64,000 bases of DNA from an uncultured Candidatus Binatia bacterium (GCA_964291295.2 OZ219754.1:1632001-1696000), one strand, 5' to 3'. Positions 911 to 28,966 are shown, counted from the stretch's first letter. The notes: generated by a model from the sequence alone, not told the origin. Numbers and translations: made by a program.

Positions 911-939
911 GGCGATGGGTGGCGGGAACCGGCGGCCGG

Positions 940-2226
940 CTACTGCGCGGGTGCGTCGCCTTCGAAAGACTCGTCCAGGGGTACGTCATCGTCATCGCCG
1001 ACGTCGGTGGTGAACAGCGGTATCCCGAACAGCTTGACCCGCTTGCGGTCGCCCACCGCTCCCGACGTGTCGCGCAGGATCTCTTCGTCGTAGATGTAGG
1101 TCAACGGGTTGAGGTAGTGCAGGAAACTCTTGTCTTCCGGGTCTTCGGTGGCCGAGGCCATCAGGCTGCCGACCGTGCCGCGCTCGGCCTGCTGCGCCTC
1201 GAAGGCGTAGCCGTCCAGCTTGACCTCCACGCGGTGCTTCTTGCGCAGGTCGGTCTTCAGCCACTTGGCGAACCTTTCCTGGAGCGTCTTGCCGTAGAGT
1301 TCGTCCCGCACCTTTTCCCAGACCGTGTCGAACGCCAGCCGCTCCCCGCCTTGCCGGTCCTCCGCCCTGATCACGTGGTATCCCAGGCGGGAGCGGACCG
1401 GTTGGCTGAGCGCTCCCTTCTTCAGGGTGGCGGCGACCCGCGCGAGCGAATCGGGCAGGCTCCCGGGTCGGACCCAACCGATATCGCCGCCCTCGCTCGC
1501 TCCCGAGCCCTCGGACTCGGCGCGCGCCAATGCGGCGAAGTCGGCCCCCTCGACCACCTGCCGGCGCAACGCTTCGATGCGCGACCTGACGGACTGTTCC
1601 CGCTCGGAAGCGGCGCCCTCGTCCAGTGCCAGCATGAGGTGGCGGAGACGCACCTGGAGTTCGGTCCGATACAAATCCGGGTTGGCGTCGTAGTAGCGCC
1701 GCGCGTCCTGCCGGGTGACGTGAACCCTTTGCCTGACGTTGCGCTGGATCAGTTCGTCCTGTTCGATGCGGCGGCGCACCTCGTCGCGGTACTGGGCGGA
1801 GGTCTTGCCGTCCCTCCTCAACAGCGCGTCGAACTCCGCGGGGGTCAGATCGTTCCGTTCCCTGACGGAGCGGATGTGCTTGTCGATGTCCGCGTCACGC
1901 ACGCGGATGCCGCCGTTCCGGACTTCGGTCCGGATGAGTTCATGGGTGATGAACTCCTCCACCCACTGCTCGGGCACCTGTCCCGCGGTCAACGCATCGA
2001 TCTGGACGTCCTGGTTCAGCCGGGTTCGGGCGAACTCCCGGAGGTCCGAGAAGGTGTGCGGATCGCCGTTGACCACCACGACGATCTTCTCCACCACACT
2101 TCCGGGAGACGGTCCGGGGAAGCCCGCCAGCAGGGCGGCCAAGGTCAGCAGGGCGGCCAAGGCCGGGACGGCGGCCGCGGACAGGCCGCGCCGCACGCCG
2201 AGAGTGGATATCGCAAACCGCTTCAT
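940..2226 (-). CDS. surA: SurA-like periplasmic chaperone / parvulin peptidyl-prolyl isomerase
   Basis: Signal-like N-terminus, VEKIVVVVNGD SurA_N start, parvulin motifs HLML..DFAALARAESE..GGDIGW..GYHVI; lies between mfd and pdxA. Start chosen at ATG 2226. Confidence 0.85.
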   Translation of the reverse strand: MKRFAISTLGVRRGLSAAAVPALAALLTLAALLAGFPGPSPGSVVEKIVVVVNGDPHTFSDLREFARTRLNQDVQIDALTAGQVPEQWVEEFITHELIRTEVRNGGIRVRDADIDKHIRSVRERNDLTPAEFDALLRRDGKTSAQYRDEVRRRIEQDELIQRNVRQRVHVTRQDARRYYDANPDLYRTELQVRLRHLMLALDEGAASEREQSVRSRIEALRRQVVEGADFAALARAESEGSGASEGGDIGWVRPGSLPDSLARVAATLKKGALSQPVRSRLGYHVIRAEDRQGGERLAFDTVWEKVRDELYGKTLQERFAKWLKTDLRKKHRVEVKLDGYAFEAQQAERGTVGSLMASATEDPEDKSFLHYLNPLTYIYDEEILRDTSGAVGDRKRVKLFGIPLFTTDVGDDDDVPLDESFEGDAPAQ

Positions 2227-2259
2227 GGGACGTTCCTTTGTTGGAACCACAATACCTTC

Positions 2260-5200
2260 CTAGCAGAGCGCGTGCAATAATTCGCAAGCCTCGTCGATCA
2301 GCGCGGGCCAAGCGGTATGGTCCGGGCTGAAGGACAGGTGTCCTTCCGGCGAGAACCGAAAACGCCGGTGATCTTCCTTCGCAAGAGCGAGCAGCCGCTC
2401 CACGTTGAGCGTGGAGGTGGCGTGGAAGGTCAGCGACAGGCGCCCGCCCTGGTAGATGATCCGGGTTCCCAGCGAGCGGATGAGGGCGCGCCGGAGTTCC
2501 ATGACCCTGAAGAGATTCTCCACCACCTCCGGGTGGTTCCCGTATCGGTCACGCAGCTCGTCCCGGATCTCCGTCAGTTGCTCCGGCGTCTCCAGGTTGG
2601 CCAGGCGCTTGTAGAACAGCAGCCGCTGATTGGCGCTGGGAATGTAATCGTCCGGCAGGTAGGCGGGGATGCCCAGGCGGATCTCCGGCTCGACGCGAAC
2701 CCGGTGCGCTTCCCCCTTGAGCTCGCGAAGGGTCTCTTCCATCATCTGGGTGTAGAGTTCGAAGCCTACCGCCGCGATCTGGCCCGATTGCTCGCGCCCC
2801 AGCAGATTGCCGGCGCCGCGGATCTCCAGGTCGTGCAGCGCAAGCTTGAAACCGCTCCCCAGTTCGTCCAGCTCCTGCAGCGCCCGCAGCCGTTTCTCGG
2901 CGTCCTTGGTCACGGTGCCGCTCTCGGGCAGCAGCAGGTAGGCGTAGGCGCGCCGTGACGAGCGCCCCACCCGGCCCCGCAGCTGGTAGAGTTGGGCGAG
3001 ACCGAACCGGTCGGCGCGGTTGATGAGGATGGTGTTGGCGTTGGGATAGTCCAGGCCGGACTCGATGATGGCGGAGCACACCAGGACCTGGGCCTCGTTC
3101 TCCTGGAACCGGGCCATGTTCTTCTTGATCTCGCCGGGGGTCATCTGTCCGTGGGCCACGGTGACCCGGGCCTCGGGCACCAGGTCCATGATCTTCCGGC
3201 CCATGCGCTGGATGTTCTCCACCCGGTTGTGCAGGAAGAATACCTGCCCGTCGCGGTGGAGTTCCCGCAGGATGGCGTCGCGGATCACGCCTTCGTCGTA
3301 ACGCGTGACATAGGTCCGGACGGCCAGCCTGTTGGGCGGCGGCGTCTCGATGACGCTCAGGTCGCGGATGCCCGACAGCGACATGTGCAGGGTTCGCGGA
3401 ATGGGCGTGGCGGTGAGGCTCATGACGTCCACGGTGTGGCGAAGCTTCTTGAGCTTCTCCTTGTGGCCCACGCCGAAGCGGTGCTCCTCGTCCACCACCA
3501 CCAGTCCCAGATCCTTGAAATTCACGTCGCTCTGCAGCAGCCGGTGCGTGCCGATGACGATGTCGATGAGCCCGCCGGCCAGGTCCTTGAGCGACTGTTG
3601 CACGGTCTTGCCGGTGACGAAGCGGCTCAGGCTCTCCACCCGCACCGGATAGGGTTCGAAGCGGGCGCGGAAGGTCTCCAGGTGCTGCTGCGCCAGGATG
3701 GTGGTGGGGGCAAGCACGGCCACCTGCCGGCCGTCCATCACCGCCATGAAAGCCGCGCGCATGGCCACCTCGGTCTTGCCGTAACCCACGTCGCCGCAGA
3801 TGAGCCGATCCATGGGCTTGCTACGGGTCAGGTCCTGGAGGGTCTCGGTGATGGCCTGCTCCTGGTCGGGCGTCTCGTCGTACTCGAATGCGGCCTCGAA
3901 CTCCCGGTACGCCTGATCCGGGGGCGGGAAACCGTGGCCCTGGTGCAACTCCCGCGAGGCATGGACCCGCAGCAGCTCCTTGGCCATGGCCACGATGGAC
4001 TTGCGCGTCCGGTCCTTGAGCTTGAGCCAGGAGGTGCCGCCCAGCCGGTCCAGGACCGGGGCGGCGCCGTCCGCGCCGATGAACTTCTGCACCAGGTTGA
4101 TGCGGTCGATGGGCAGATAGAAGCGGTCGCCTCCCTGGTACTCCAGGTGCAGGAACTCGCCTTCGGTGTCCGCCACCTTGAGGTACTTGAGCCCGCGATA
4201 GATGCCGATGCCCTGGTCCAGGTGCACCACCACATCGTCCTGCCGGAGCTCGCTCAGGCTGGTGATGAAGTGGCCCGGCGCCTCCCGCCTTCGGACCGCG
4301 CGGTCGCGCTTGCGGCGGCCCCACAGCTCTTCGAGGGTAATGAGGATCAGCCCCTCGTCGGGGAGCCGCACTCCCTGTGTCAGGGCGCCCAGCAGGATCG
4401 CGGGGCCGTTGGCGGGGTTGCCCATGACTTCATGGAAGGGTTGCGCCGACAGCGGCAGCTCCACGTCGTAGTAGGCCAACAGTTGTTGCAGCCGTTGCGC
4501 GTCGGCGGGATGGCCGCCCACGAACAGCACCCGCTGGCCGCGCCACCGTTTCAGGTGTTCCACCAGGGGTGCCAGGGAGCGTTCCGACCCCTGCTGCGTG
4601 GTGAGGGCGCTGTGCAGGTCGGCGTTGCCATGGGAGCGCACCGAAAGCGCCGACGAGGATCCCTCCGGGGGCGCGAGGACATCCAGGCTCTCGCCGTGGA
4701 TCTGCCGGAAGGCCGCGGCCTCGCCGCGCCAGCTGTCCGGGTCGAGATACACGGCTCCGGCGTGGGGATGGAACCGCCCCTCCGCCGCGGCCTTGGAAGC
4801 CCGTTGGGTCACGAGCGCGTCGAACTTCTCGAACTCTTCTTCCAGCCGGGTGGGCTGATCGTACCAGAGGATGGCGTTGCGCGGGAGGTGGGCGAGGATC
4901 GACGGCAACGGCCGCTCGTGAAAACAGGGCGCCAGGAATTCCATACCCGCGAAGCGCACGCCTTCGCGCACCGCCTCCAGCAACGCGCGCTTGTCCTTGC
5001 GGGCGAAACCCAGTTCGTCCGCACGCTCCTCGATGCGGATGAGGGTGTCCTGCGGGGTCTGCGGTCCGGAGGCGAACTCCCGGATGGGCAGAAGCCACAG
5101 CTCTCCGGGACGCGCCCGGGTGCGTTGCGTCCGGGCGTCGAACTGGCGTATGGAATCGATGCGGTCGCCGGCGAACTCCATTCGGAAGGGCCGCTCGCAG

Positions 5201-5760
5201 GCCGGCGGAAACAGGTCCACGATGCCGCCGCGCACGCTGAAGTCGCCCCGTTCCTCCACCAGAGGGGCGCGCGCGAAGCCCAGACGGGAGAGTTGCCCCA
5301 GCAACTGGTCCCGCTCCACTTCCTGGCCTTCGACAAAGTGCGCGGCGTGCAGGCTGCCTTGGGGCACCACGCGCTGCAGCACCGCGGCCGGGGTGGTGAC
5401 CAGGATCGGCGCGGACTGCCGGGCGAGCCGGTGGAGGCCCTCCATCCGGGCGGCCATCTGATCGGGGTGAGGCGACAGGCTCTCGAACGGCAGCACGTCC
5501 CAGCCCGGAAACAGCTGGAGCCGCCGTTCGAGGGGAGCGGAGCCGCCCTCTTCACCCAGGAAGAACGAAAGGTCGAGGAAAAGCCGTTCGGCCTCCTTCA
5601 CGGCAGGCGCCAGCAACACCAGCGGGCAGCGGATACGCCGGGCCGCCAGAAAGACGGCATAGGCCTGGGCGCTGCCGTGGAGGCCGGAGATCCGCTTTTC
5701 GCTGCACCACTCGTCGTTCAGCAGTTGCGAGATCTTGTCGTCGAGGGAAGGGGATGTCAC
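2260..5760 (-). CDS. mfd: Transcription-repair coupling factor
   Basis: RGGIVDLFP, CarD-like VVHLDQGIG, GDVGYGKT, DEEHRFG, QLRGRVGRS, C-terminal TRCF domain; GTG start at 5760 has GAGGT upstream. Confidence 0.96.
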   Translation of the reverse strand: MTSPSLDDKISQLLNDEWCSEKRISGLHGSAQAYAVFLAARRIRCPLVLLAPAVKEAERLFLDLSFFLGEEGGSAPLERRLQLFPGWDVLPFESLSPHPDQMAARMEGLHRLARQSAPILVTTPAAVLQRVVPQGSLHAAHFVEGQEVERDQLLGQLSRLGFARAPLVEERGDFSVRGGIVDLFPPACERPFRMEFAGDRIDSIRQFDARTQRTRARPGELWLLPIREFASGPQTPQDTLIRIEERADELGFARKDKRALLEAVREGVRFAGMEFLAPCFHERPLPSILAHLPRNAILWYDQPTRLEEEFEKFDALVTQRASKAAAEGRFHPHAGAVYLDPDSWRGEAAAFRQIHGESLDVLAPPEGSSSALSVRSHGNADLHSALTTQQGSERSLAPLVEHLKRWRGQRVLFVGGHPADAQRLQQLLAYYDVELPLSAQPFHEVMGNPANGPAILLGALTQGVRLPDEGLILITLEELWGRRKRDRAVRRREAPGHFITSLSELRQDDVVVHLDQGIGIYRGLKYLKVADTEGEFLHLEYQGGDRFYLPIDRINLVQKFIGADGAAPVLDRLGGTSWLKLKDRTRKSIVAMAKELLRVHASRELHQGHGFPPPDQAYREFEAAFEYDETPDQEQAITETLQDLTRSKPMDRLICGDVGYGKTEVAMRAAFMAVMDGRQVAVLAPTTILAQQHLETFRARFEPYPVRVESLSRFVTGKTVQQSLKDLAGGLIDIVIGTHRLLQSDVNFKDLGLVVVDEEHRFGVGHKEKLKKLRHTVDVMSLTATPIPRTLHMSLSGIRDLSVIETPPPNRLAVRTYVTRYDEGVIRDAILRELHRDGQVFFLHNRVENIQRMGRKIMDLVPEARVTVAHGQMTPGEIKKNMARFQENEAQVLVCSAIIESGLDYPNANTILINRADRFGLAQLYQLRGRVGRSSRRAYAYLLLPESGTVTKDAEKRLRALQELDELGSGFKLALHDLEIRGAGNLLGREQSGQIAAVGFELYTQMMEETLRELKGEAHRVRVEPEIRLGIPAYLPDDYIPSANQRLLFYKRLANLETPEQLTEIRDELRDRYGNHPEVVENLFRVMELRRALIRSLGTRIIYQGGRLSLTFHATSTLNVERLLALAKEDHRRFRFSPEGHLSFSPDHTAWPALIDEACELLHALC

Positions 5761-5990
5761 CAGGCCGGTTACCTCACGAGGAACGGTGAACCAGTGTAGC
5801 GGAAGGACGGCGGCAGCCGCAACGGAACCCCGGTGGATCCGGTGCATTCGGCGTGTTCGGGGCCGTGCGGGGCGAGCCGGGCGTCCTGCATGACTTCCGG
5901 CTCCTGGATTTCCGGTTCCTGGACTTCCCCGACACGGGTAGGTTACAGTGGCATTCTCCCGACACCCACACGGAAGAGGATCCACCCATC

Positions 5991-7670
5991 ATGGCGAAGA
6001 GGAGCCCGAGAAGCGCAAGGACGGTGCAGGCAGTGCCCGAAAGGGGCTATCCGGACCTCCATGAACATCTCCGCCGCCTGGACGACGCCGGCCTGCTGAT
6101 CCGGGTGGCGCGCCCGGTGGACAAGGACCAGGAGATGCATCCGCTGGTGCGCTGGCAGTTCCGCGGCGGGATCAGGGAGCGGGACCGCAAGGCGTTCCTC
6201 TTCGAGCAGCCGGTGGATGCAAAGGGGAAGCGCTACGACATCCCGGTGGCCGTCGGCGTGCTGGCCGCCAATCGACGGATCTATCGCATCGGCCTGGGGT
6301 GTGACGAGGACACGGACATCAATGCCCTGTGGAGCGAGGCCAGGGCGAATCCGCGGGAGCCGGTGGAGGTTCCGTCGTCGGCCGCGCCGGTGCACGAGGT
6401 GATCCTGTCGGGGGCGCAGCTCAAGGGCCGGGGCAAGGGCATGGACGGCATCCCGGTTCCCATCTCCACACCCGGCTGGGACAACGCGCCGTACGTGAGC
6501 GCGGCCCATTTCATCTCGCGCGACCCCGATCATGGCGGGCACAACATCGGCACCTATCGGGCCATGATCAAGGCCCGCGACCGGCTTGGTTGCAATCCGT
6601 CCATCGAGCTCGGGCAGGGCATCTATCGGCACTGGCTCAAATACCGGGAACGGGGCGAAAAGATGCCGGTGGCGCTGTGTATCGGCGGCGTGCCCGCCAT
6701 CTCCTACGTGGCGGCGCAGAAGCTTGCCTACGACCTCGACGAGTTCTCCGTGGCGGGAGGTCTGGTCAAGGCCCCCATCCGCGTCACCGAGGCCCGCACC
6801 GTGCCGGTGCGGGTGCCGGCGGACGCGGAGATCATCGTCGAGGGCTTCGTCAACACCGAGTGGCTGGAGCCCGAGGCACCCTTCGGCGAGTCCCACGGCC
6901 ACGTGAACCCAAAGGAGTACAATCCGTTCATGGAGGTCACCTGCATCACCCGGCGGCGTGACGCCATCCTCTGCTCCATCATCAGCCAAGTGACGCCGTC
7001 CGAGTCGAGCGTCATCAAGAAGATGGCGTACGAACCCCTCTACCTCGAACATCTGCGGGACGGCATCGGGGTGAAGAGCGTCCTTCGGGTGATGCTCCAC
7101 GAGCCCTTGACCGCCACCCAGAAGCTCACGGTGATACAGATGCGCCAGCCCGGTGCCGCGGAGGTGTGGCGCGCGCTCATGGGCGCGGTTGCGTTCCGTC
7201 CCTCCATGTCGAAGATCGTCATCGCGGTGGACGAGGACATCGATCCCGATAACCTCGACGCCGTGTTCTGGGCCATGGGCTACCGCTCCAGGCCGCACCG
7301 CGACGTCCAGATCATGCACGGCATGGACGTGGGCCACGCCCCCCGGCACGATACGCGCGGCTCCGCCGATGACTCGTGCCTGCTCTGGGACGCCACCCTC
7401 AAGGAGAAGCTGCCGCCCATCTCGCTGCCCACTCGGGAGTACATGGAGCGGGGCCGGAAACTCTGGGAGGAGCTGGGGCTGCCGGAACTGGAGCCCCAGT
7501 CGCCGTGGTTCGGTTACTCCCTGGGGGACTGGAACCCGGAACTGGAGCGGGAGGCGGCCTTGGCCACCCGCGGGGAGTACTGGAAGACCGGCGCGAAGAT
7601 CGCCCGCCAGCGCCGCTCCACGAAGGACCTCCTGCCCAACGAGTCATTCTACGGCGACGATGACGCGTAA
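5991..7670 (+). CDS. UbiD-family (prFMN-dependent) decarboxylase
   Basis: DLHEHLRRLDDAGLL start, NIGTYR, AEIIVEG, EAPFGESHGH, IAVDEDIDP motifs. Confidence 0.88.
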   Translation: MAKRSPRSARTVQAVPERGYPDLHEHLRRLDDAGLLIRVARPVDKDQEMHPLVRWQFRGGIRERDRKAFLFEQPVDAKGKRYDIPVAVGVLAANRRIYRIGLGCDEDTDINALWSEARANPREPVEVPSSAAPVHEVILSGAQLKGRGKGMDGIPVPISTPGWDNAPYVSAAHFISRDPDHGGHNIGTYRAMIKARDRLGCNPSIELGQGIYRHWLKYRERGEKMPVALCIGGVPAISYVAAQKLAYDLDEFSVAGGLVKAPIRVTEARTVPVRVPADAEIIVEGFVNTEWLEPEAPFGESHGHVNPKEYNPFMEVTCITRRRDAILCSIISQVTPSESSVIKKMAYEPLYLEHLRDGIGVKSVLRVMLHEPLTATQKLTVIQMRQPGAAEVWRALMGAVAFRPSMSKIVIAVDEDIDPDNLDAVFWAMGYRSRPHRDVQIMHGMDVGHAPRHDTRGSADDSCLLWDATLKEKLPPISLPTREYMERGRKLWEELGLPELEPQSPWFGYSLGDWNPELEREAALATRGEYWKTGAKIARQRRSTKDLLPNESFYGDDDA

Positions 7671-7769
7671 CAGGCCGGCGCAGCCCCGCCCGGTGCGTTC
7701 CCGCGTGGTCTGGGCGCGGCTTGCACGCGAGGGCCACGTTCGGGACAAGTGCCGAAAGGACCGTTGTCG

Positions 7770-8678
7770 ATGGACTACAAGACGCTCAAGTGGACCGTGC
7801 GCGACAACCCGTCGAGGCCGGGCGAGCCCTGCATCGGGGTCATCGCGCTGAGTCGTCCGGCGCAGCTCAACGCGGTGGATCCGCTGATGCGGCTGGAACT
7901 GGACGCCCTGTGCAACGAGATTGCGCGCAACTCCATCCTCAAGGTGGTGATCCTCACCGGCGAGGGGCGCGGCTTCTGCGCCGGCGGCGACCTCACGTCC
8001 GAGGGCGCCGTGCTGGGGGCGTTCGAGGGTTCCAGCGGCATCGAAGGCCCGTACAAGGAGCTGGCCGAGCATTTCCTGAACGATCTCCGGCACCGGGTGC
8101 TCCAGAGCGCCATGCGCAAGCTTGAGGACCTGCCGCAGCCCACCATCGCCGCGGTGAACGGCCCGGCCGTGGGTGTGGGGCTGGAAATGACCACGCTGTG
8201 CGACATGCGCATTGCCTCGGACCGGGCGCGCTTCGGCGAGGTGGCGGTGCCCGCGGGCTTTGTTCCGGAAAGTGGCGGCTCGCGCAATCTGCCCAAGCTC
8301 GTGGGCATCGGGCGGGCCATGCGCCTGATCCTCACGGGCGACATCATTGATGCGCCGGAGGCTCTGCGTATCGGCCTGGTGGACGAGGTGGTGCCGCACG
8401 ACGAACTGATGGGCGAGGTCTTTGCCCTGGCCGGCAGGATCGCGGCCAACCCGTATCTTTCGGTGCGGCAGGCCAAGCGCCTGGTCAAGATGTACTGGAA
8501 CTGGAACCGGACCGACGAAGGTTACCGCGAGGAGCTGGAGTCGGTGCTCGAGATCACCCGCACCAAGGATTGTCAGGAAGGCATGCGGGCGTTCAGGGAA
8601 AAGCGCCCACCCCGCTACACGTATCCTCATGACGCCGGTTGGCCGTTTCCCGAGAAGGGCGGAGGCGGGAAGGGGTGA
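7770..8678 (+). CDS. Enoyl-CoA hydratase/isomerase (crotonase) family protein
   Basis: FCAGGDL, IAAVNGPAVGVG, CDMRIASDRARFG, EGMRAFREKRPP. Confidence 0.9.
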   Translation: MDYKTLKWTVRDNPSRPGEPCIGVIALSRPAQLNAVDPLMRLELDALCNEIARNSILKVVILTGEGRGFCAGGDLTSEGAVLGAFEGSSGIEGPYKELAEHFLNDLRHRVLQSAMRKLEDLPQPTIAAVNGPAVGVGLEMTTLCDMRIASDRARFGEVAVPAGFVPESGGSRNLPKLVGIGRAMRLILTGDIIDAPEALRIGLVDEVVPHDELMGEVFALAGRIAANPYLSVRQAKRLVKMYWNWNRTDEGYREELESVLEITRTKDCQEGMRAFREKRPPRYTYPHDAGWPFPEKGGGGKG

Positions 8679-10321
8679 GCGACCCGGTGCCGGCCTCCCG
8701 AGGGCAACACTCCGGCGGCAGCGGAGACCCGGGGGCTGTGACGGCAATGGCTGCAGGTTCGATCCCGTGGCCGGGCTACCGGAAGATCCCTGCCAGACTC
8801 AACCTCGCGGACGAAGTGCTTGAGCGGCCGGGGGCGGCGGACCCTGCGGCGATGGTGTGGAACCGCGGCTCCCTGACCCGCCGGGAACTTCGCGGCAAGG
8901 TGCACGCCTTCGCCAGGGGCCTGCGGGAACTGGGAGTGTTGCCGGGAGAACCGCTGGTGGTGCAGATGGCCAACTCGCCGGAGTTCGCCACCGCGTTTCT
9001 GGCGGCCGTCAAGATGGGAGTGCTGCCGGTGATGGTCAACTCGCTCCTGGGCGTGCGGGAAGTCCAGGCCATCCTGGCGCAGACGCAGCCCCGTTTCGCA
9101 GTCACCGAAGGCTCCCGCGCCCAGGCCCTGCGCCAGCTGCGCGGCTCCATGGGGCTGCGGAACCTGGTTTGCGCGGGCGAGGCCCGCGGCGACGAGATTC
9201 CGTTCGACGCCCTTCAGGGGAAGTCGCCGGAAGACGTCCGCACGCGCGACACCTCGGCCCACGAGCCGGCGTTCATGGTATGTACCTCCGGCACCACCGG
9301 CCGCCCCAAGTGCATCGTCCACGCGCACCGGTGGATCGTCGCCCTGGGGGACCTGAACCGCTACCGGCTGCCGCCGGAGCCGGGCGACGTGGTGATGGCC
9401 ACCGGCGAGTGGAGCTTCATCAGCGCGCTGGGCCACAACCTGCTCTTCCCGCTGCGGAACGGGGTCACGTGCGCCGTGCTGTCGGGCCGCGCGACCCCCG
9501 AGAACGTGCTGGAGCACGTCGCGTCTCTGGGCGTCACGCTGCTCCATTCCGTGGCAACGGTCTACCGCCGGATGCTCGCCGCCGAGGGCATGGAGGATCG
9601 CTACGCCATCCACACCCTCAGGGGCGCGCACTCCACCGGCGAGGCGCTGCGCGAGACCATCTGCCGCCAGTGGAAGGCGCGCTTCGGCTGCGAGATGTAC
9701 GAGCACTACGGAGTGTCCGAGTATCAGCTCGTGGTCGGTCACGGCGTCCGGCATCCGGTAAAGCCGGGCTCGGTGGGGGTGCCGGCCCCGGGCGTGGGCA
9801 TCGACATCGTGGACGACGACGGCCGCCCGGTGGGGGCGGGCGTGGTCGGCCGCACGGTGATCTCGGTTCGGGATCCGGGTCTCTTTCTCGAATACCACGC
9901 CGACCCTCGTCGCACCGAGGAGGCCCGCCGGGGTGGCGTTTACGACACCGGCGACTTGGCGTACCGGGACGAGGAAGGCTACTTGTTCATCGCCGGGCGC
10001 AGCGACGACTGCTTCAAGACCCGCGGGCTCTTTCTGGTGCCCGCGGAAGTGGAGAACGCGCTCCAGCGTCATCCCGCGGTGGCCGAGGCCGTGGTGGTGC
10101 CGGAGCCCGATGCGGAGATCGGCAACCGCGTCTTCGGGATGGTGGTGCCGGCGGCGGGCAGCAAACCGTCGGAGGAGCTGTCAGAGACGCTGCGCCGGAG
10201 CCTCCGGCAGGAACTGGCGCACTACAAGGTTCCCTACCGGATCGAGTTCGCCGAAACGATTCCCAAGAGCCCGGTGGGCAAGATACTGCGGAACGAGGTA
10301 TCCGCGCGCAAAAGGATGTGA
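8675..10321 (+). CDS. Acyl/aryl-CoA ligase (benzoate-CoA-ligase-like ANL enzyme)
   Basis: TSGTTGRPK, YGVSE, TGD, GRSDD, PKSPVGKILR; GTGA overlap with upstream stop. Confidence 0.88.
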   Translation: MSDPVPASRGQHSGGSGDPGAVTAMAAGSIPWPGYRKIPARLNLADEVLERPGAADPAAMVWNRGSLTRRELRGKVHAFARGLRELGVLPGEPLVVQMANSPEFATAFLAAVKMGVLPVMVNSLLGVREVQAILAQTQPRFAVTEGSRAQALRQLRGSMGLRNLVCAGEARGDEIPFDALQGKSPEDVRTRDTSAHEPAFMVCTSGTTGRPKCIVHAHRWIVALGDLNRYRLPPEPGDVVMATGEWSFISALGHNLLFPLRNGVTCAVLSGRATPENVLEHVASLGVTLLHSVATVYRRMLAAEGMEDRYAIHTLRGAHSTGEALRETICRQWKARFGCEMYEHYGVSEYQLVVGHGVRHPVKPGSVGVPAPGVGIDIVDDDGRPVGAGVVGRTVISVRDPGLFLEYHADPRRTEEARRGGVYDTGDLAYRDEEGYLFIAGRSDDCFKTRGLFLVPAEVENALQRHPAVAEAVVVPEPDAEIGNRVFGMVVPAAGSKPSEELSETLRRSLRQELAHYKVPYRIEFAETIPKSPVGKILRNEVSARKRM

Positions 10322-10446
10322 CCGCGTGGATGTGATTGCTGTGCAAACGGGCGGAGAGGTGACTGCGACGCAGCCGGGCGCGAACCGGCCGGGACAAGCG
10401 GCGGAGACTCTGTGAAAGGCCGTTCACGGCATGGGAGGTTGACGAT

Positions 10447-10860
10447 ATGGCAGACCTGTCGCACAAGGTGATCCACGAGGCAGCCGGCGAGCTGCTGGCG
10501 GAGTTGGCGAACGAAGCCGGGCGTCCGGTGTCGTGGGCCGTGCTTGACGCCCACCGGGGACTCTTGCACTACACGCGCATGGACGGCGCACCCTACCGCT
10601 CCAGCATTCTCTCCCACAACAAGGCGTACTCCGCGGTGTGGTTCGGCCGGGACTCGGTGGAGATCGAGAAGATGGTGGGTAACCGCGGCATCGCCGCCTA
10701 CGGCGACCCGAACCTGACCTCCATCGGCGGCGGCGTCCTGGTCAAGGACAGGTCAGGTGCCGTGGTGGGCGCCATCGGCGTGAGCGGACGCACCATGGAG
10801 GATGACATCGCGGTGGCGGTGCGGCTGGTGGACAAGATCAGGGCCAAGGCGGGTTTCTGA
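10447..10860 (+). CDS. GlcG/HbpS family heme-binding protein
   Basis: RMDGA..NKAYSA..GGGVLV..GAIGVSG motifs; GGGAGG RBS. Confidence 0.85.
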   Translation: MADLSHKVIHEAAGELLAELANEAGRPVSWAVLDAHRGLLHYTRMDGAPYRSSILSHNKAYSAVWFGRDSVEIEKMVGNRGIAAYGDPNLTSIGGGVLVKDRSGAVVGAIGVSGRTMEDDIAVAVRLVDKIRAKAGF

Positions 10861-10864
10861 GGGG
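10850..10864 (+). repeat. 15-bp direct repeat copy 1 (CGGGTTTCTGAGGGG), possible left att/target duplication
   Basis: Identical to 18970-18984; spans the stop codon of the GlcG-like gene. Confidence 0.6.
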
Positions 10865-10915
10865 AGGCTGGTGCCGTTCAGGAGGAGATGCCTCAATGCC
10901 TCTGGAGCGCAACGA

Positions 10916-13003
10916 CTAACCCAAGCCGAACAGTTCCAGAAGTTCCTTGCGGTTCAGGCGTGTCGAGAGGTCCATTGACACATCATCGACCAGTTGATCG
11001 AACAACGCCTGTTTTCGCCGCAGAATCTGATCGATGCGCTCCTCGATCGTATCCTCGCAGGTGTACTTGATTACATTCACCTTGACCGTTTGGCCCAAGC
11101 GGTGACTCCGGTCCTCGGCCTGCTGTTCCACGGCCGGGTTCCACCACCGGTCCAGATGGAACACATAGGACGCCTCCTGTAAATTCAGACCAAGCCCGCC
11201 CGCCCGCAAAGAAATGATCAGTGCTCTGTGAGTATTTCCGGTCTTGAAGCGGTCGATGAGTTCCGAGCGCCGCTCCGGCGGGGTATCGCCGGTCAGGACA
11301 AGTGGGTTGAAGGCCTTGAGATGATTGGCGGCAGCCCCTACGCCCGCAGTGTCGCTCTTGTACTGGGAAAAGACCAGCGCCTTGTGTCCCTGCTCCACCA
11401 ACGCCTGCAATCTGTCGCTGATATCGTCCAGTTTGCTGGAGGCTCCCGTTCTGGGATCGGCATTGCAGATTTGTTTCAGACGGGTGATCAGTTCCAACAC
11501 ATGCTGGATTCCGACTTCGGTTCCAAGAGACTTCAGATAGACGATCCCCTCGTGTTCTGCCTTGTCGTAGCTTTCCCGCTGCTCGCGGTGCAGGGAGACC
11601 GTCAATCTGCTCTCCAATTTGGGCGGAAGATCCTGAAGAACGTCACCTTTTTTGCGCCGAAGCTGCAATTCACGGTGCCGCTGGCGCAACGCCGGGCCTG
11701 GACTATAGTGTTTGCGCGGGGTTCCCTTTTCGTGATCGACGAACTCCATGATGGAAGCCAATTCGTCCTCATCGTTCTCGATGGGTGTGCCGGTCAATGC
11801 CCAGGAGCGCCGCCTCGGGAGGTTCTTGACAACCGCGCTCGTGTCGTTTCGGTTCTTGATTCTCTGAGCCTCATCAAGCACGACCACTCCCCAAGCATTC
11901 CTGGTGGCCTGGAGTCTCGCCAGATATACTGTATCCTGACGCAGGACATCGTAGCTGACCAACGTGATGTCTTTCCCGGCCCTCCAGTGCCAGCTTCGGT
12001 CATTCCATCCCCCGCGGACGATGATCGCACTGAGTTCAGGCGCCCACCGCGCGAGTTCGCTCCGCCATTGATCGAGCACACTGGCCGGGGCCACTACAAG
12101 CCCGGACTCGATCTCTCCCCGCGCCCTCAGTATCCGTAGAGCGGCGACGGCCTGCACCGTCTTGCCCAGGCCCATGTCGTCTGACAGCAGCAAGCGGTCC
12201 ATTGAGATCAGGGCTTGGATGCCTTCGCGCTGGAACGGCATGAGCTCGGCGGGCCACTCCAGGTGCGCGTCCGGTCGGGTGGAGGCGCTAGGGGTTCGGG
12301 GGGGCGCAAGCACTGCCCACAGCCGTTCGACCAAGTCGAATTCCGCTCGGCCCTGCGCCCCGGCCTTGGACGTAGTAACAGAGGATACGGCGTCTTCACT
12401 CATCTGCGTGCCAGTTCGGGGAGGCAATGAAATCACCGTTCTCAGCCCCTCCATCTCCATCAACGATCGGACCCGCGGGTCGGCAAATGCAATGGTCAGA
12501 GCCTTGGCAGTCCGCACCATCGGCTCAAGCGGATCCTGCCATTGCATGATCCGGCCGAGCGCCTTGTTCGCGGTCGATTGCGGTCCGGGATCCCCGTTCG
12601 CCCAGAGCACCTGACGAACAGCACCGATCGATGGCCCCGGTCCCGAATCACCCTCGCACTCCTCGGATGTCCAAACAACACGACCAAAGGGTACCTTGGG
12701 ACTCAGTGCATGGAAGTGCCGAGAAGGTACCTCTTCCGCAAGACCGAGCAGTAGTGTGGGTGCTGCCACGCACGACTGAACCAAAAAGCCTGCGAGAAAC
12801 GGTGTCACGGATTCGTCAGCAGATCCCCGCAGCGTTCCCCGGACGAAGCTGAAACCCAAAGGCTCCCCCCGTGCCGACGTCTCCAACAGTCCGGCGTGAA
12901 TGCCCCGGCCGTCCTGTACCCGGACAAACCGCAGCCACCCGATCACTCCGCCTCCGGTCATGCCGTAAAAGGGAAGGGGTACGCGAGAGTGCCGTTCATC
13001 CAT
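10916..13003 (-). CDS. SNF2-family (SF2) helicase/ATPase with uncharacterised N-terminal domain
   Basis: DDMGLGKT, DEAQ, LTGTP, GGLGLNL, WWNPAVEQQAEDRSHRLGQ; ~250-aa N-terminal region not recognised. Confidence 0.9.
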   Translation of the reverse strand: MDERHSRVPLPFYGMTGGGVIGWLRFVRVQDGRGIHAGLLETSARGEPLGFSFVRGTLRGSADESVTPFLAGFLVQSCVAAPTLLLGLAEEVPSRHFHALSPKVPFGRVVWTSEECEGDSGPGPSIGAVRQVLWANGDPGPQSTANKALGRIMQWQDPLEPMVRTAKALTIAFADPRVRSLMEMEGLRTVISLPPRTGTQMSEDAVSSVTTSKAGAQGRAEFDLVERLWAVLAPPRTPSASTRPDAHLEWPAELMPFQREGIQALISMDRLLLSDDMGLGKTVQAVAALRILRARGEIESGLVVAPASVLDQWRSELARWAPELSAIIVRGGWNDRSWHWRAGKDITLVSYDVLRQDTVYLARLQATRNAWGVVVLDEAQRIKNRNDTSAVVKNLPRRRSWALTGTPIENDEDELASIMEFVDHEKGTPRKHYSPGPALRQRHRELQLRRKKGDVLQDLPPKLESRLTVSLHREQRESYDKAEHEGIVYLKSLGTEVGIQHVLELITRLKQICNADPRTGASSKLDDISDRLQALVEQGHKALVFSQYKSDTAGVGAAANHLKAFNPLVLTGDTPPERRSELIDRFKTGNTHRALIISLRAGGLGLNLQEASYVFHLDRWWNPAVEQQAEDRSHRLGQTVKVNVIKYTCEDTIEERIDQILRRKQALFDQLVDDVSMDLSTRLNRKELLELFGLG

Positions 13004-13015
13004 ATGGCGAAGGTC

Positions 13016-14299
13016 TTACCCGGATTCGTCCCTGGTCTCGTGTTCCAGGTCAACGTTCTCGTCATACGGTGTTGTAAACTCCACACCCTCGGTGTGAGGC
13101 CGGTAGTTCGGATATAGCCGGCGCAGATCCCATTCGTTGATCGCAGCCCGGACCTTGTAACGCATTCGTCCCTGAAAACCCGCTCCCCCCGCCGAGGCTT
13201 CATAGGCCGGAGGCTCCCACCCGTAAGCTTTGTTGTACAAGCCGCGCAAGGTTTCGACAGTTGCCTTTACGTCTTGATCGTTGGGTGACCTCAAGCTCAA
13301 TGAGTTGTTCACCAGGAGATGCATGCCGCTCTCTGCGCGAGCCCCGAGATCGCTGTGTCTCGCGCTCTGTTCCAGTTTCGGTCGAACGTAATCGCCGTCC
13401 TTCTTTTGTCCGTCAGGGCTGATGATAGCAGCCGCAAAATCCTCGGTAACTGCGCCGACTACGATCAGGCCGGGATAACTCTCTTCCTGCGCCAATCCCA
13501 TCCACCTTGCCAACTCCGCGTACGACCGTCCGCGTTGCAATATCGAATATGATCCGATCAACTCGATCTCGTCCAAAAGTACAACCCAGCCGCGATACCC
13601 GGCGCTCTTGATCAACTCAACGGCGAACCGCAATCGCTGCGGCGGCAGGTCGGCTGCTTTCGGCGCGCGGAACTTGTAATTTTTGGACTCATCGATCTGT
13701 TTGAGTCCATTGCGAATCCTGGAGATCGGTATGGGGTCACCCGCCCAGAAGGATTCGATTTCGCTCATCAACTCCATGTCTCTCGAAAGTTCGTGGACGA
13801 TACGGCTTGCAGGAAACATCATGCTCAGGCGGCCATCTGAGGCGGCGGTGTCAGCCCACCGAGCAAAGGTCATATACTCCTTCGAACTCGGCTCCATGGA
13901 AAGCGCAAGCTCTTCAATGAAGCGTCCGCGTCGGTCAGGTATCCGACCGTTCTCCATGGTCGAGACAAACACTTTCCCCAGATCGTAGAGCGGAGTTTCC
14001 TTGCTGATGGCAACCCTGCTGCAAACGAAGTTCTTGGAAAGGGCGAGATGTTCAAGGTGCGCCAGAAGATGCGACTTGCCCGAGCCAAAATCCCCGGAAA
14101 CAAGCATTCCATGAGAGTGTGTCAACGGCCCATCGGTTCTTGCCGCATCATCCAGCATCTGGACAAATCGTTCTTCAGCCTGCGGTTGATTGCAACCCAG
14201 TTCCCGTACTGCTTGCCGGTTCGGCACACCGTTGCGCAAGGCCTCCACGGCCATCCGGGCTTCCAGTCTTCCGTTCGTGTGAAACGCCATACGATCCAT
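13016..14299 (-). CDS. BrxD/DUF2791-like P-loop ATPase
   Basis: VEALRNGVP N-terminal motif, Walker A GDFGSGKS, Walker B GYRGWVVLLDEIE. Confidence 0.8.
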   Translation of the reverse strand: MDRMAFHTNGRLEARMAVEALRNGVPNRQAVRELGCNQPQAEERFVQMLDDAARTDGPLTHSHGMLVSGDFGSGKSHLLAHLEHLALSKNFVCSRVAISKETPLYDLGKVFVSTMENGRIPDRRGRFIEELALSMEPSSKEYMTFARWADTAASDGRLSMMFPASRIVHELSRDMELMSEIESFWAGDPIPISRIRNGLKQIDESKNYKFRAPKAADLPPQRLRFAVELIKSAGYRGWVVLLDEIELIGSYSILQRGRSYAELARWMGLAQEESYPGLIVVGAVTEDFAAAIISPDGQKKDGDYVRPKLEQSARHSDLGARAESGMHLLVNNSLSLRSPNDQDVKATVETLRGLYNKAYGWEPPAYEASAGGAGFQGRMRYKVRAAINEWDLRRLYPNYRPHTEGVEFTTPYDENVDLEHETRDESG

Positions 14300-14302
14300 C
14301 CT

Positions 14303-15262
14303 CTACAAAAGCCGCACCAGAGCCGCCACCGGATTGGCGACATTCCGATCTCGAACGTCGTCCATCACCCTGGTGCGGAGAGCGGGGTAGATGGCCCAGC
14401 TTCTCCCGGACTGCTCGTCGATGAACGTGGCGTCGGTCAACGTCACCATCAAACACCCTGATAACCGATCCACGTCGTCAATGAATTCTCGCAGCAACTC
14501 GTAGTGATCCATGGTCATGGCCCGCGTGTAATAGCGCTTTCCGTCCATGGGATTACGAGACAGGGTCACGCGGGTATTATCCAAAAGAAGCACCGTACCG
14601 GAATATCCCGCCTGTCGTACCCAATACAAAGCCGATTCGATGAAATATCGTGCAGTCGTACGATTGATGGGTGTATGAATTTGGAACGGCTTGACATTGC
14701 CAATCCGCGTGTTGGTGCCCGATAGCCAGTCAAGCAGCGGCTGGTCAGCATATCTCTCCGGCCCCGCACTCTCCCTTTCGGAAAGGCAGAGATGCGTCAT
14801 AGCCACCCGGAAGGGCTTGGCCATGTTCGCGTTCTTGATGACCTTTTTCTCCAAGGCTGGTCGCAATTCGATGAGTACGGTCTGAGGTTCGATGTCGTTG
14901 GCTTGAGCCACGGCATTGATTATGTTGGCTGCCCCGTCCGGCTCAATGCCATCGACCGGAAAGGCCGTCTCCGAGAGCAGCCGCAAGACCACCCGACGCG
15001 CAAGCAATCGCCAGTCAATCTGCGAAGCCAGTCCGAAAAAGACATCCTGAGGCATGTGCACACGACTGGCGGTGGCATCCAGCGCAACGAACAGGTACGC
15101 TTGTCCTTCGCAAAGGTTCTTCATACCCTCGACAAGAGCAGGCCGTCGGTCCTCTGCGGTAATCGCAAACTTCACCGCAGCACCGCCGTCCTTGATGAAC
15201 GTGGACAAGTACTCGCGATCCATATGGTCGAGCCAGTCGGCTACCGGGATAGCATTGGTCAT
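14303..15262 (-). CDS. BrxD/DUF2791-like paralogue with degenerate Walker motifs
   Basis: GGAAVKF strand with no following GxxGxGKT; GYSGTVLLLDN in place of LLDE; YELLREFID and YPALRTRV resemble the DUF2791 C-terminus. Confidence 0.65.
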   Translation of the reverse strand: MTNAIPVADWLDHMDREYLSTFIKDGGAAVKFAITAEDRRPALVEGMKNLCEGQAYLFVALDATASRVHMPQDVFFGLASQIDWRLLARRVVLRLLSETAFPVDGIEPDGAANIINAVAQANDIEPQTVLIELRPALEKKVIKNANMAKPFRVAMTHLCLSERESAGPERYADQPLLDWLSGTNTRIGNVKPFQIHTPINRTTARYFIESALYWVRQAGYSGTVLLLDNTRVTLSRNPMDGKRYYTRAMTMDHYELLREFIDDVDRLSGCLMVTLTDATFIDEQSGRSWAIYPALRTRVMDDVRDRNVANPVAALVRLL

Positions 15263-16086
15263 TCGCCACCCTTGCTGAATCGAACACCGTAATATTCGGC
15301 GTTATCGCCGTTTGGCCCAATGAAGGAAAAAAGATCGCTCGAACGTTTCCGGGCACCCGTAGAACTCGGGAACGAAACGGCTGCGCCATCCTTGGTGCGG
15401 CGAGGTCCGTGCGACTCGAGAATGTAGAGGTCGCGGGCAAAGTCGCTTCGACCATAGTCGCGAGCGCTCCCAGGAAGGGCCGTCATCAGCTTGTATATCC
15501 TGGCCAGAGGCATAACACGACCGCTGTCCGGCAAGAGGCCTGAGGAGGATTTCTGGTTTGAGGATGATTTCTTTGCAATCTCTGCAAGGTCGGTATAAAC
15601 AGTATACAACGATTCCAGAAATCGTTGCGATGAAAAGCCGCTGGACTTCTTCTGATTCGTCAGGAGGAGCCCGGCGAGGTAGGACGGCCTTACGGTGGAC
15701 ACCTTCTTTCTGTCCACCATGACCACACGTTCAGCCGGGAGTATCCGTACGATTGACGGGTATGAGATCAAGCTCCCTTCCCGTTCATGAATCTTCAGCC
15801 CCTTTGTGCTCGCGGCAGCCTTGAGTTCTTCGGAGTACTGAGGACCGAACAACTCCTGTTCTCCCTCGCCTGAGAACGGCCAGCAGGAACCGATATTGGA
15901 AACCTCTTGCTGAAGCGTAGCGAGAACTTCGTTCAGTCTCCGCAGGCAGCGTCTTCTGCCGGCAATATCACCGGTTCGGGCAGCTTTCGCCAAAGCGCGG
16001 ATCTGAGAAGAAACGCTGCCGGCGGACTTTAGTGCGTTTTCGGCAGCTCTTTCGGTATCACTACAGGCTTGTTCGAAGCTGACCAC
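15259..16086 (-). CDS. Hypothetical protein, first gene of the BrxD-like/SNF2 operon
   Basis: GGGAGG RBS upstream of GTG 16086; stop overlaps next start (ATGA); helical N-terminus; no family recognised. Confidence 0.75.
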   Translation of the reverse strand: MVSFEQACSDTERAAENALKSAGSVSSQIRALAKAARTGDIAGRRRCLRRLNEVLATLQQEVSNIGSCWPFSGEGEQELFGPQYSEELKAAASTKGLKIHEREGSLISYPSIVRILPAERVVMVDRKKVSTVRPSYLAGLLLTNQKKSSGFSSQRFLESLYTVYTDLAEIAKKSSSNQKSSSGLLPDSGRVMPLARIYKLMTALPGSARDYGRSDFARDLYILESHGPRRTKDGAAVSFPSSTGARKRSSDLFSFIGPNGDNAEYYGVRFSKGGE

Positions 16087-16268
16087 TATCCACACCTCCC
16101 ATGTGGGTCCAGATAACCAACACCATTGATACGAGTTTCTGTTTGGCAACGCAAGAGCCGGATTCCCTGACGAGCATCGGCCGTGCCACCGTCAGTTCGA
16201 TCACGGCGGCCGACGAGCATCCCGTCCATCCGGTGCTGTCGTAGCCTGCCGAGCCTCTTCAAACAGCG

Positions 16269-16440
16269 TCATCCCGTCCATCCTGCCGACAGCGCGTCCG
16301 CCGGTTCGAACATGGAGTGCGTCGTCTTTCCCGCCTGTCCAGTGGGTAGCCAACTGCGCAAGATGCGTTTCACCAGTTGGCGCAGGTTGGCACGGACGGT
16401 CTCGCTCCGTGTCCAGTCGTCGTTGCGGTCCTCGACTGTT
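16269..16440 (-). pseudogene. Relic of type I restriction subunit HsdR C-terminus (DUF3387-like)
   Basis: DWTRSETVRANLRQLVKRILR, then GYPLDRRE in a shifted frame, then ADALSAGW; matches the recalled DWT..ENVRA.LR..VKRILRK.GYPPDKQE..LS..W tail. Confidence 0.7.
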
Positions 16441-16627
16441 GTCCGGCACAGGCCCGGGTTGAGCCGGGCCTGCGCCGGCGTAGACGCTGCCCCAGCAACA
16501 CCACGCCATGGTCTGCACGCTCGGCCATCGGTCCATCGGGGATGATGTCCAGGCCGTGCGCGCGGCCCGGCCGAGGCTCGAAAGCCATTCGAGGGTGCCC
16601 CCTCGACCGTAGATTCTGTGACACGGT

Positions 16628-17392
16628 TCATGCAGCCAACTCATCCCGCGCTTCGTCACGGGTCGACCATGGAACCGGGTTCACCGCATAACTCCGCAGG
16701 GCATCCAGGACGTTCTCGGAAATCTTCTGTTCGGAGTCGTTCAGAATCGCGTAGGCGCGAGCCTCGGAGGAACGTTCTTCTCTGGTGTCAATCCAGGAAA
16801 ATACCATCGCCTGTGCGGCGTCGCGGTTTGGCCGGTTGATGGCACGCAGGACACGTTCAGGCCGAGCTTTCGATTTTGGTATGACAAAATCGAAACGATG
16901 ATCGTAGCCGCTCTTGCCGGTGAATTTGACGCTCGGCGTATAGCGGATATCGGAGAAATCAAACCACGCGGTGACATCCTCGTGAAACAGATGCATGATG
17001 GCAGGTGAGGCCAGATGGAAGAGATCGTTGACCGCCAGCATCGCCTGCACGAGATTGTGCTTCCGTAGAGGAAAATTGTCCGGTGATGCCTTGACTTCAA
17101 GCGCCTTTCCATTCGCCTGTACACCGAATCCGTTCAGCGTCGTCCTGAACATGGCTTGGCGCTTCGGGCTGTCAATCCTGCATCCTGATAATTCGAGATC
17201 TTCGAGAACATGCCCGTCATCCGTCAGCACGAAACCGTTGTCGGCGCGTCTGGCATAAATCTGGAGGTAATCGTTGTGCCGGTCCAGGTACGGTGTTGTG
17301 ATCTCGACGCAGTCTCTCACCTCGCGCAGGTTAGTCTTGTCCTTCAGCCAAGCCCAGTAAAGTTCCACCAGTTTCTGTATGTCCTGGATCAT
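16628..17392 (-). CDS. DUF1828/DUF1829 domain protein (C-terminal restriction-endonuclease-like fold)
   Basis: [46 protein letters not shown] motifs. Confidence 0.8.
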
Positions 17393-17838
17393 ATGAACAG
17401 CCCCGGCCTGATAATGGGCGGCTCGGTGATGCGGCAGAACCGCATGAAGTCTTCGAGCGTCAGCCACGGGTCGTCGAGATTCGGGAAACTGACGGCTGGA
17501 GCCGGAAAGGCCCACTTGTCGCCAAACCCTTCTCGGTAAAGATGCAGGTGAAGGGAACCGACTTCTTTGCCGTCCGGGTTGCGATGCGGTGCCCCACCGA
17601 AATCGAGCCGAGCCAGGGTCCCAGTCTCCCGACCGCGATTCGGGTAGGTTCCTTTCTGGAGGTCAATCCTCGCCCGCCGAAGGTCGAGAAAGAACCGCTC
17701 GCGCCCATTCACTGAGACCAAGGGTGCTGTAAGCCGCCCTCCCAGACCCGGATAGTCCCGCTCGGCAGAGCCCGCACGCCGTTTTTCCATTGCCAGAAGC
17801 GCGTCGGCCTCTGCTTGTGCAAGGCTTGCGTCAGTCAT
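17389..17838 (-). CDS. DUF6978-like protein
   Basis: [42 protein letters not shown]; ATGA-coupled to the DUF1828/29 gene. Confidence 0.7.
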
Positions 17839-18045
17839 GGGAAAGCGCGTGGATGGATGAAAATGGCGGAGGCGAAGACCCTCACAGCTTTGGCAGCGGT
17901 GGTCCGCCCGGCTTTGGCCCCCGCCGTCGGGGCCGGGGCCGGTGGAAGGGTTCGGGGTTGGTCCGGTCCGCCTCGTGACGGCGATGCGGTGTGTACGATG
18001 GCGTGTGCGCGATGCGCCGGGTGACGAGGAAGATCCTCGCGGCAC

Positions 18046-18930: not shown

Positions 18931-18969
18931 GGCTCCGGGTTACGGCTCCGGGTCATTACGGCCGGGAGT

Positions 18970-18984
18970 CGGGTTTCTGAGGGG
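18970..18984 (+). repeat. 15-bp direct repeat copy 2, possible right att/target duplication
   Basis: Identical to 10850-10864. Confidence 0.6.
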
Positions 18985-27137: not shown

Positions 27138-27138
27138 G

Positions 27139-28956: not shown

Positions 28957-28966
28957 GAGCCACCCC

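Follow-up and report, generated by a model that had tools for sequence, protein, structure and literature searches.

A four-gene cassette combining a dead/live pair of BrxD-type ATPases with an SNF2 motor, probably an uncatalogued relative of Shango and of the BREX BrxD-helicase pair

A compact four-gene cassette in a Candidatus Binatia genome

The DNA analysed here is a 64,000-nucleotide stretch (hereafter the window) from an uncultured Candidatus Binatia bacterium (GCA_964291295.2, OZ219754.1:1632001-1696000), which carries at positions 10916 to 16086 a cassette of four co-oriented genes on the minus strand. According to the list of open reading frames (ORFs) of the window, gene 1 (15259-16086, -) encodes a 275-residue protein of an unnamed family, gene 2 (14303-15262, -) a 319-residue protein that we read as a degenerate BrxD paralogue and pseudo-ATPase, gene 3 (13016-14299, -) a 427-residue BrxD-like AAA+ ATPase, and gene 4 (10916-13003, -) a 695-residue protein. 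Gene 4 is composed of an N-terminal domain predicted to adopt an RNase H-like fold (residues 1-250; 12254-13003, -) and an SNF2 motor (residues 251-695; 10916-12253, -).

The junctions, read directly, are an ATGA overlap between genes 1 and 2, TAG-agg-ATG with a gap of 3 bp between genes 2 and 3, and TAA, 12 bp and ATG between genes 3 and 4. The GC content was 0.56-0.61 across 11001-17000, compared with 0.65-0.71 across 1-10500 on the low-coordinate side. An earlier account of this DNA made from the sequence alone (the sequence-only reading) had described four co-oriented genes with this overlap and these gaps, richer in AT than their flanks, and all of these features were seen directly. It had also placed the start of gene 1 at 16086. 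The longest ORF of gene 1 spans 15259-16149 (-); we took the GTG codon at 16086 as the start because a Shine-Dalgarno-like GGGAGG (16095-16100, -; suggested by sequence reading) lies 8 nt upstream and because homologues align from residue 1 of the 275-residue form. A scan for promoters and terminators across 10400-16700 returned one and three sites, respectively, which was not above shuffled sequence.

A fixed pseudo-ATPase next to a live BrxD-like ATPase

Gene 2 matched the Pfam family BrxC_BrxD (PF10923) over residues 141-318 only (E 3.6e-10). It has GGAAVKF at residues 26-32, no GxxxxGK[ST] motif anywhere, and LLDN at residues 226-229, within LLLDN. Gene 3 matched PF10923 (E 2.2e-18), PADLOC BrxD (1.7e-14) and SngB (8.5e-7), with a GSGKS Walker A motif at residues 72-76 and an LLDE Walker B motif at residues 241-244. 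The loss of Walker A and the LLLDN in the Walker B of gene 2, and the presence of both motifs in gene 3, are as the sequence-only reading had stated.

A word-indexed search returned 1194 relatives of gene 2 at E<=1e-3, and the 120 relatives among the matches listed were 250-332 residues long and 59-100% identical. Related loci were drawn from one genome per GTDB species: there were 243 pattern matches, 205 of them encoding a gene 2 relative, from which the 80 best were used. The gene 2 Walker A motif (GxxxxGK[ST]) was present in 0/80 loci, and the Walker B Glu position was Asn in 80/80 (DN in 69, EN in 10 and NN in one). Five loci with partial matches were left out of the 80 when gene 3 motifs were scored; Walker A was found in 75/75 of the scored loci and DE in 71/75. 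It had been considered that gene 2 might be a recently decayed copy whose homologues all keep intact Walker motifs. Because none of the 80 loci has Walker A and all have Asn, gene 2 appears to be a fixed pseudo-ATPase within the branch of the window and not a product of recent decay. Gene 3, judged by its motifs, is a predicted live ATPase.

The prediction of a complex between gene 3 and gene 2 scored 0.84 (runs 0.84, 0.84 and 0.82) against 0.00 for the best of three controls, a score that may partly reflect likeness to solved AAA+ assemblies. Contact agreement between runs was at least 76%, and the partner predicted local distance difference test (pLDDT) was at least 83. Of solved complexes, 58/80 reached the pass mark, as did 2/110 mismatched pairs, rates that are rough here, where custom alignments were used. 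The predicted interface draws on the most conserved stretches, namely residues 25-30 and 296-314 of gene 2 and residues 12-29 and 380-410 of gene 3. The model supports a heterodimer of genes 2 and 3, and the hetero-oligomer of an active and a pseudo-ATPase that had been proposed earlier passes this controlled prediction. A comparison of the gene 3 profile with PDB sequences gave P-loop-local rows alone (TnsC 0.041, BrxC 0.21), and these were set aside.

An SNF2 motor with an RNase H-like head

Gene 4 matched SNF2-rel_dom (PF00176, 5.2e-44) and Helicase_C (2.3e-19), with the SNF2 domain starting at residue ~251-258. The motifs GLGKT at residue 278 and DEAQ at residue 377 were both kept in 65/65 scored loci. 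The PADLOC matches ZorD (8e-76), DpdE (6.2e-65) and DrmD (9.2e-45) were confined to residues ~250-690. The best NCBIfam rows were the SCO1167/SCO6262 helicase (5.3e-81) and the pilus expression-regulating Snf2 helicase (3.9e-73), both covering the motor only and both far under their cut-offs.

No model in Pfam, PADLOC or NCBIfam matched residues 1-250. A structure model of this head (pLDDT 80.7) has the order beta-beta-beta-alpha-beta-alpha-beta, and Foldseek placed EndoV at the top (4xpu_A, E 2.7e-3, prob 1.00), followed by PIWI chains of short prokaryotic Argonautes (pAgo) and the C-terminal half of UvrC. The head thus models as an RNase H-like fold nearest to EndoV and PIWI. The unrecognised SNF2 N-terminal domain of ~250 residues in the sequence-only reading therefore stands as far as library families are concerned, and its fold can now be proposed. 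The head profile searched against PDB sequences gave chance rows only (E>1).

EndoV and PIWI nucleases carry a catalytic set of acidic and His residues. In an alignment of 31 head sequences, the invariant columns were G46, L74, P105 and G186, and the near-invariant columns included E160 and R164 and no Asp or His. The E91 column was Glu or Asp in 31/31 rows, and no other acidic column was as conserved. An invariant Asp, Glu or His was found in none of the columns, and strand 1 reads W23-L24-R25, without a conserved Asp. Based on these two features of the alignment, we read the head as a binding module, probably non-catalytic, rather than an active nuclease.

Gene 1 belongs to an unnamed family

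Gene 1 matched no family in Pfam, PADLOC-DB 2.0.0 (2023) or NCBIfam, and its own family comprises 578 clusters at 50% identity (E<=1e-3). The AF2 model (pLDDT 93) has an N-terminal antiparallel long helical hairpin (residues 4-68), a small beta domain (residues 100-129) and then helices. The C-terminal part, with the order helix-helix-helix-strand-strand, looks winged-helix-like in this model. Foldseek found no PDB match at E<=1e-3 and no solved fold beyond a generic hairpin, and all 30 feature matches in the ESM Atlas were unnamed clusters. When 55 gene 1 relatives were compared with Pfam at E<=0.05, only scattered single matches were obtained, TerB in none of them. The gene 1 profile matched designed helical bundles and cytochrome c' alone among PDB sequences, and no family was assigned from these.

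Conserved synteny and spread across phyla

By tblastn, gene 1 was present in 78/80 related loci, directly upstream of gene 2, gene 3 in 80/80, the gene 4 motor in 67/80 and the gene 4 head in 66/80. All four genes were colinear, with gene 4 no more than 2 kb from gene 3, in 63/80 loci. Median identity to the window was 55% for gene 1, 61% for gene 2, 63% for gene 3, 71% for the motor and 36% for the head, the fastest-evolving part of the cassette. The 80 loci, nearly all from metagenome-assembled genomes, belong to Pseudomonadota, Chloroflexota, Acidobacteriota, Gemmatimonadota, Thermodesulfobacteriota, Binatota and Tectimicrobiota. The co-occurrence of the four genes, a point on which the sequence-only reading hinged, is thus conserved across seven phyla.

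An SNF2 match within 8 kb was lacking in 13/80 loci, and in locus L019 the gene 4 motor is cut to a 59-residue remnant. Ten of the SNF2-less loci form one fully supported Vicinamibacterales clade (L052, L058, L061, L062, L065, L070, L074, L077, L078 and L080), which may represent a natural three-gene form, or one in which the motor is dispensable or encoded elsewhere. No replacement helicase was found among 10 large flanking ORFs scanned in the SNF2-less loci, which comprised a penicillin amidase, two radical SAM proteins, three PSD/PSCyt proteins and four without a family. In another locus (L054:8965-13421), gene 3 is apparently split and the SNF2 gene is shifted by ~3.5 kb, with two 441-residue ORFs between them that are possibly insertion sequences.

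A FastTree phylogeny of concatenated genes 2 and 3 was built from 72 loci and the window, excluding eight loci with partial matches or stops. Phylum labels required 9 changes on this tree, compared with a minimum of 6 and a shuffle mean of 35.7, and are therefore clustered. Starred branches force at least four changes for Acidobacteriota and at least four for Pseudomonadota. Acidobacteriota rows stand at no fewer than four places, some of them within proteobacterial clades, and the window falls in a starred set of 10 rows in which seven Pseudomonadota and two Bryobacterales are mixed. Multiple changes alone are no proof of horizontal transfer; together with the 75% identity seen between phyla, they are most simply explained by it. 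Within the phylum of the window, a gene 1 relative was found in 11/401 sampled genomes, its own genome included, and in none of 13 listed genomes of its class or order.

Distant cassettes keep the core and exchange the helicase

Six of these 11 matches within the phylum were distant (E about 1e-9), and five of them (L092-L096) were examined. Each of the five carries ORFs resembling genes 1, 2 and 3, arranged as in the window. Four of them have a full-length BrxD in the position of gene 2 (PF10923 about 1e-61, PADLOC BrxD 9.1e-46, SngB 3.3e-39), with an intact Walker A motif and LLLDE, and an equally intact counterpart of gene 3. The fourth gene in these four loci, following the two intact BrxD paralogues, encodes a protein of ~1950 residues. 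The first 700 residues of this helicase in L092 matched BrxHI (5.3e-90) and SngC (1.1e-73), and the C-terminus of the ~1950-residue protein is an AAA_11/AAA_12 superfamily 1 (SF1) helicase, DpdJ/MkoA-like, fused to the superfamily 2 (SF2) part. In the fifth locus, L093, Walker A is present with FDN and there is no adjacent helicase. No PADLOC match was obtained for the gene 1 counterparts of L092 and L093.

Gene 2 of the window aligned to the active full-length form across the Walker B region (E 8e-8) and is ~110 residues shorter, mostly at the C-terminus. Since the distant cassettes pair two BrxD paralogues with a BrxHI/SngC-type helicase, the conserved core of the family appears to be gene 1 plus two BrxD paralogues, with a helicase that is exchangeable between branches. 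The same comparison suggests that the first BrxD paralogue lost its ATP site in the branch of the window.

Genomic neighbourhood

Directly upstream of the cassette, a DUF1828/DUF1829 protein (16628-17515, -) matched the PADLOC candidate PDC-M24B (6.7e-104), and next to it a DUF6978 protein (17389-18045, -) matched PDC-M24A (1.2e-46); the two proteins that define PDC-M24 are thus these neighbours and not members of the cassette. A short open stretch at ~16270-16420 (-) encodes a peptide that may resemble the C-terminus of the type I restriction protein HsdR and is probably a gene remnant. Beyond the PDC-M24 pair lie genes for a solute-binding protein and a GST, and then three large co-oriented genes (22152-33004, -) that form a second low-GC block 6 kb from the cassette. 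They encode a 1669-residue DndH/mad8/HerA-like protein, a 605-residue mad7-like protein and a 1345-residue protein with NERD and protein kinase domains and a STAND/SspF/mad6/MkoA-like part, a composition resembling a defence-type block.

An 18-nt direct repeat, 17/18 identical, is found at 10847-10864 and 18967-18984, flanking the low-GC segment. The segment between the copies holds the cassette, the HsdR-like remnant, PDC-M24 and a gene for a TbpB-like lipoprotein, and the repeats may mark the borders of an island. The genes seen next to the cassette in the window included none for an integrase, a relaxase or replication.

Across the related loci, the 149 nearest neighbours were heterogeneous and included genes for transposases, PIN, AspBHI, GmrSD, Type ISP and HNH proteins. 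A co-oriented HNH_2 endonuclease gene of ~295 residues lies ~240-280 bp upstream of gene 1 in 11/74 loci (L026, L029, L034, L036, L040, L044, L045, L046, L048, L055 and L059), and some Caldilineaceae loci have a second copy downstream. All 11 loci belong to Caldilineaceae, and HNH_2 was therefore rejected as a general fifth component of the cassette.

Possible function

We lean towards reading the cassette as a self-contained, horizontally mobile four-gene operon, part of a wider unnamed BrxD-pair family, that most likely protects its host from phage or plasmid DNA. Homology and genomic context point to the defence role. We infer that the two ATPases together load the SNF2 motor or activate it. 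The live gene 3 ATPase and the pseudo-ATPase of gene 2 would form the modelled heteromer, which, aided by the helical, winged-helix-like gene 1 protein, may recognise a DNA state typical of an invader and then recruit or switch on the SNF2 translocase. The EndoV/PIWI-like head, probably non-catalytic, would hold a DNA end, nick or lesion, and the motor would strip or stall replication or transcription complexes. No modification enzyme is encoded in the cassette, and such a system would therefore not follow restriction-modification logic.

A more tentative possibility is that the cassette represents an unnamed "helicase-loader" immune superfamily. A BrxD heterodimer and a new adaptor would load interchangeable motors, either SNF2 with its head or the BrxHI-SF1 double helicase, onto foreign DNA and exclude the invader without a modification enzyme or a dedicated nuclease. 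Shango and the BrxD-BrxHI dyad would then be reduced cousins.

Several observations weigh against a mobile defence operon built around a BrxD pair. No nuclease or other effector is evident in the cassette, and the head has no invariant acidic or His column. Genes 2 and 3 are weakly alike by profile (hhalign probability 17%, E 1.5e-3, Walker B region only), and the score of their predicted complex carries the bias towards AAA+ assemblies mentioned above. The 13 loci without an SNF2 match and the motor remnant of L019 argue against the motor as a constant part. No gene 2 homologue was found in the plasmid or phage collections. The immediate neighbours also include housekeeping genes, such as DNA polymerase I (3), citrate synthase and dehydrogenases, and the neighbour counts, which have no baseline, indicate variable insertion contexts and not enrichment near defence genes.

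An accessory module for DNA repair or replication restart is the alternative that survives best, and we consider it unlikely. Here, an EndoV/UvrC-like head would sense nicks or base damage, with the AAA+ pair loading SNF2 so that it clears stalled complexes on host DNA. DNA polymerase I occurs in 3/74 upstream neighbours and CinA in 2/75 downstream neighbours, and the cassette itself has neither a nuclease nor a modification gene. However, the distribution is patchy (the 11/401 genomes of the phylum), and the cross-phylum tree placements, the low GC and the adjoining PDC-M24 and Dnd/MADS-like trio also speak against repair. Furthermore, the fast-evolving head (36% median identity versus 71% for the motor) fits conflict genes better, and the closest sequence relatives of the cassette are BrxD/SngB and BrxHI/SngC.

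Less probable still is a transcription or chromatin-type regulator, or an element-maintenance module, in which SNF2 would have a role comparable to that of RapA or of the pilus expression-regulating Snf2 helicase and serve a mobile element. The two best NCBIfam rows of gene 4 would suit such a role, as would the imperfect direct repeat that brackets the low-GC segment. However, those below-cut-off matches extend over the common SNF2 core only, genes for an integrase, a relaxase or replication were not seen around the cassette in the window, and gene 2 homologues are missing from the plasmid and phage records.

We regard it as very improbable that the cassette is a detached helper of a Pgl-type BREX (bacteriophage exclusion) system encoded elsewhere in the genome: one 676-residue PglZ-domain ORF exists 1.27 Mb away and the NERD-kinase protein 13 kb from the cassette weakly matches PglW (8.6e-11), but genes 2 and 3 are the sole PF10923 matches of the whole genome, leaving no BrxC/PglY, no BREX genes were among the nearest neighbours in 80/80 loci, gene 3 scores 53.8 bits against a BrxD equivalog cut-off of 350, and no PglZ relative was found in the window or 96 loci by a single-sequence tblastn of limited reach.

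The cassette bears on BrxD and SngB, which are among the least understood parts of type 2 BREX and Shango. It isolates a BrxD pair and a motor without a methylase or PglZ and is in that sense a natural experiment on BrxD, with one subunit switched off by evolution (Walker A in 0/80 loci) and distant relatives that keep both live. The idea of BrxD as a loader is directly testable for this reason. In addition, the fusion of SNF2 to an EndoV/PIWI-like head is a new domain combination among defence-type motors. Most members of the family come from uncultivated lineages (Caldilineaceae, Dehalococcoidia, Vicinamibacterales, Binatia, Entotheonella and Paracoccaceae), so isolate-based catalogues may miss it.

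Comparison with known systems

The four-gene system has no name in PADLOC (2023 release), Pfam or NCBIfam, in agreement with the sequence-only reading, which did not recognise the architecture as a named system; a more recent name is possible. No description of the cassette was found among the literature matches listed for BrxD, DUF2791 and Shango. The "BREX-related" systems in the main account of PMC12839542 are centred on DUF499 and are distinct from the present cassette.

The C-terminal motors of Zorya ZorD, Dpd DpdE and DISARM DrmD match the motor of gene 4. However, gene 4 is without the N-terminal or nuclease parts of these proteins, and none of their partners (ZorABC; DpdA-K; DrmABC/M) was matched by genes 1-3 or by neighbouring genes. 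The predicted RNase H-like fold of the gene 4 head is shared with EndoV and with the PIWI domain of (short) prokaryotic Argonautes, but the head has neither a sequence-level match to them nor conserved catalytic acids or His, and unlike in Argonautes it is fused to an SNF2 motor and not to MID/APAZ.

The combination of a dead NTPase beside a live ATPase of the BrxC/D family recalls BrxB-BrxC of type 1 BREX, for which a solved entry titled BrxC-BrxB exists (9zn5). In its treatment of BrxB, PMC12839542 presents the protein as an inactive STAND NTPase proposed as an invader sensor. Gene 2 is BrxD-derived and not STAND/DUF1788; the likeness is treated here as an analogy.

The BrxD-BrxHI pair of type 2 BREX is also among the closest known systems. 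As set out in the BrxD passages of PMC12839542, BrxD is an ORC/Cdc6-type AAA+ ATPase that is tightly linked to BrxHI and proposed to load or activate it. The cassette likewise links BrxD-family, ORC/Cdc6-like ATPases tightly to a helicase, and the distant cassettes carry a BrxHI-like N-terminal helicase. However, the cut-off of NF033438 (BREX_BrxD) is 350 bits, whereas gene 3 scores 53.8 and gene 2 34.5; both genes pass the broader PF10923 cut-off of 22.2. Furthermore, an SNF2 motor stands in place of BrxHI, and gene 1 and a second paralogue are added. The cassette has no accompanying PglZ, PglX, PglY or PglW; PglZ and PglX were absent from the scanned window ORFs (871-34533), and the single PglZ-domain ORF of the genome (G000:C1:375501-376025, L097), used as the query in the tblastn of the 96 loci, lies far from the window. 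The earlier statement that pglZ and pglX are missing agrees with both searches, and the suggestion of a stand-alone cassette, as opposed to a piece of BREX, is supported.

Shango has a similar organisation. Its description in the relevant part of PMC10250203 is a TerB-like protein, an ATPase and a DEAD/DEAH helicase, which were anti-phage by plaque assay. Both systems consist of one operon in which a small accessory protein is followed by a BrxD/DUF2791-family ATPase and this by a large helicase. The match of gene 3 to SngB covers residues 61-105 only and is weaker than its match to BrxD. The paralogue in the distant cassettes matches SngB at full length and the distant helicase matches SngC. 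Gene 1 differs from the TerB-like SngA, with no Pfam or PADLOC match, and the cassette has two ATPase paralogues, one of them dead, whereas Shango has one. The helicase of the window is SNF2 with an EndoV/PIWI-like head and not DEAD/Lhr, and SngC is absent from the best 25 of 42 PADLOC rows of gene 4. Taken together, we see in the cassette a probable anti-phage relative, not yet catalogued, of Shango and of the BREX BrxD-helicase pair.

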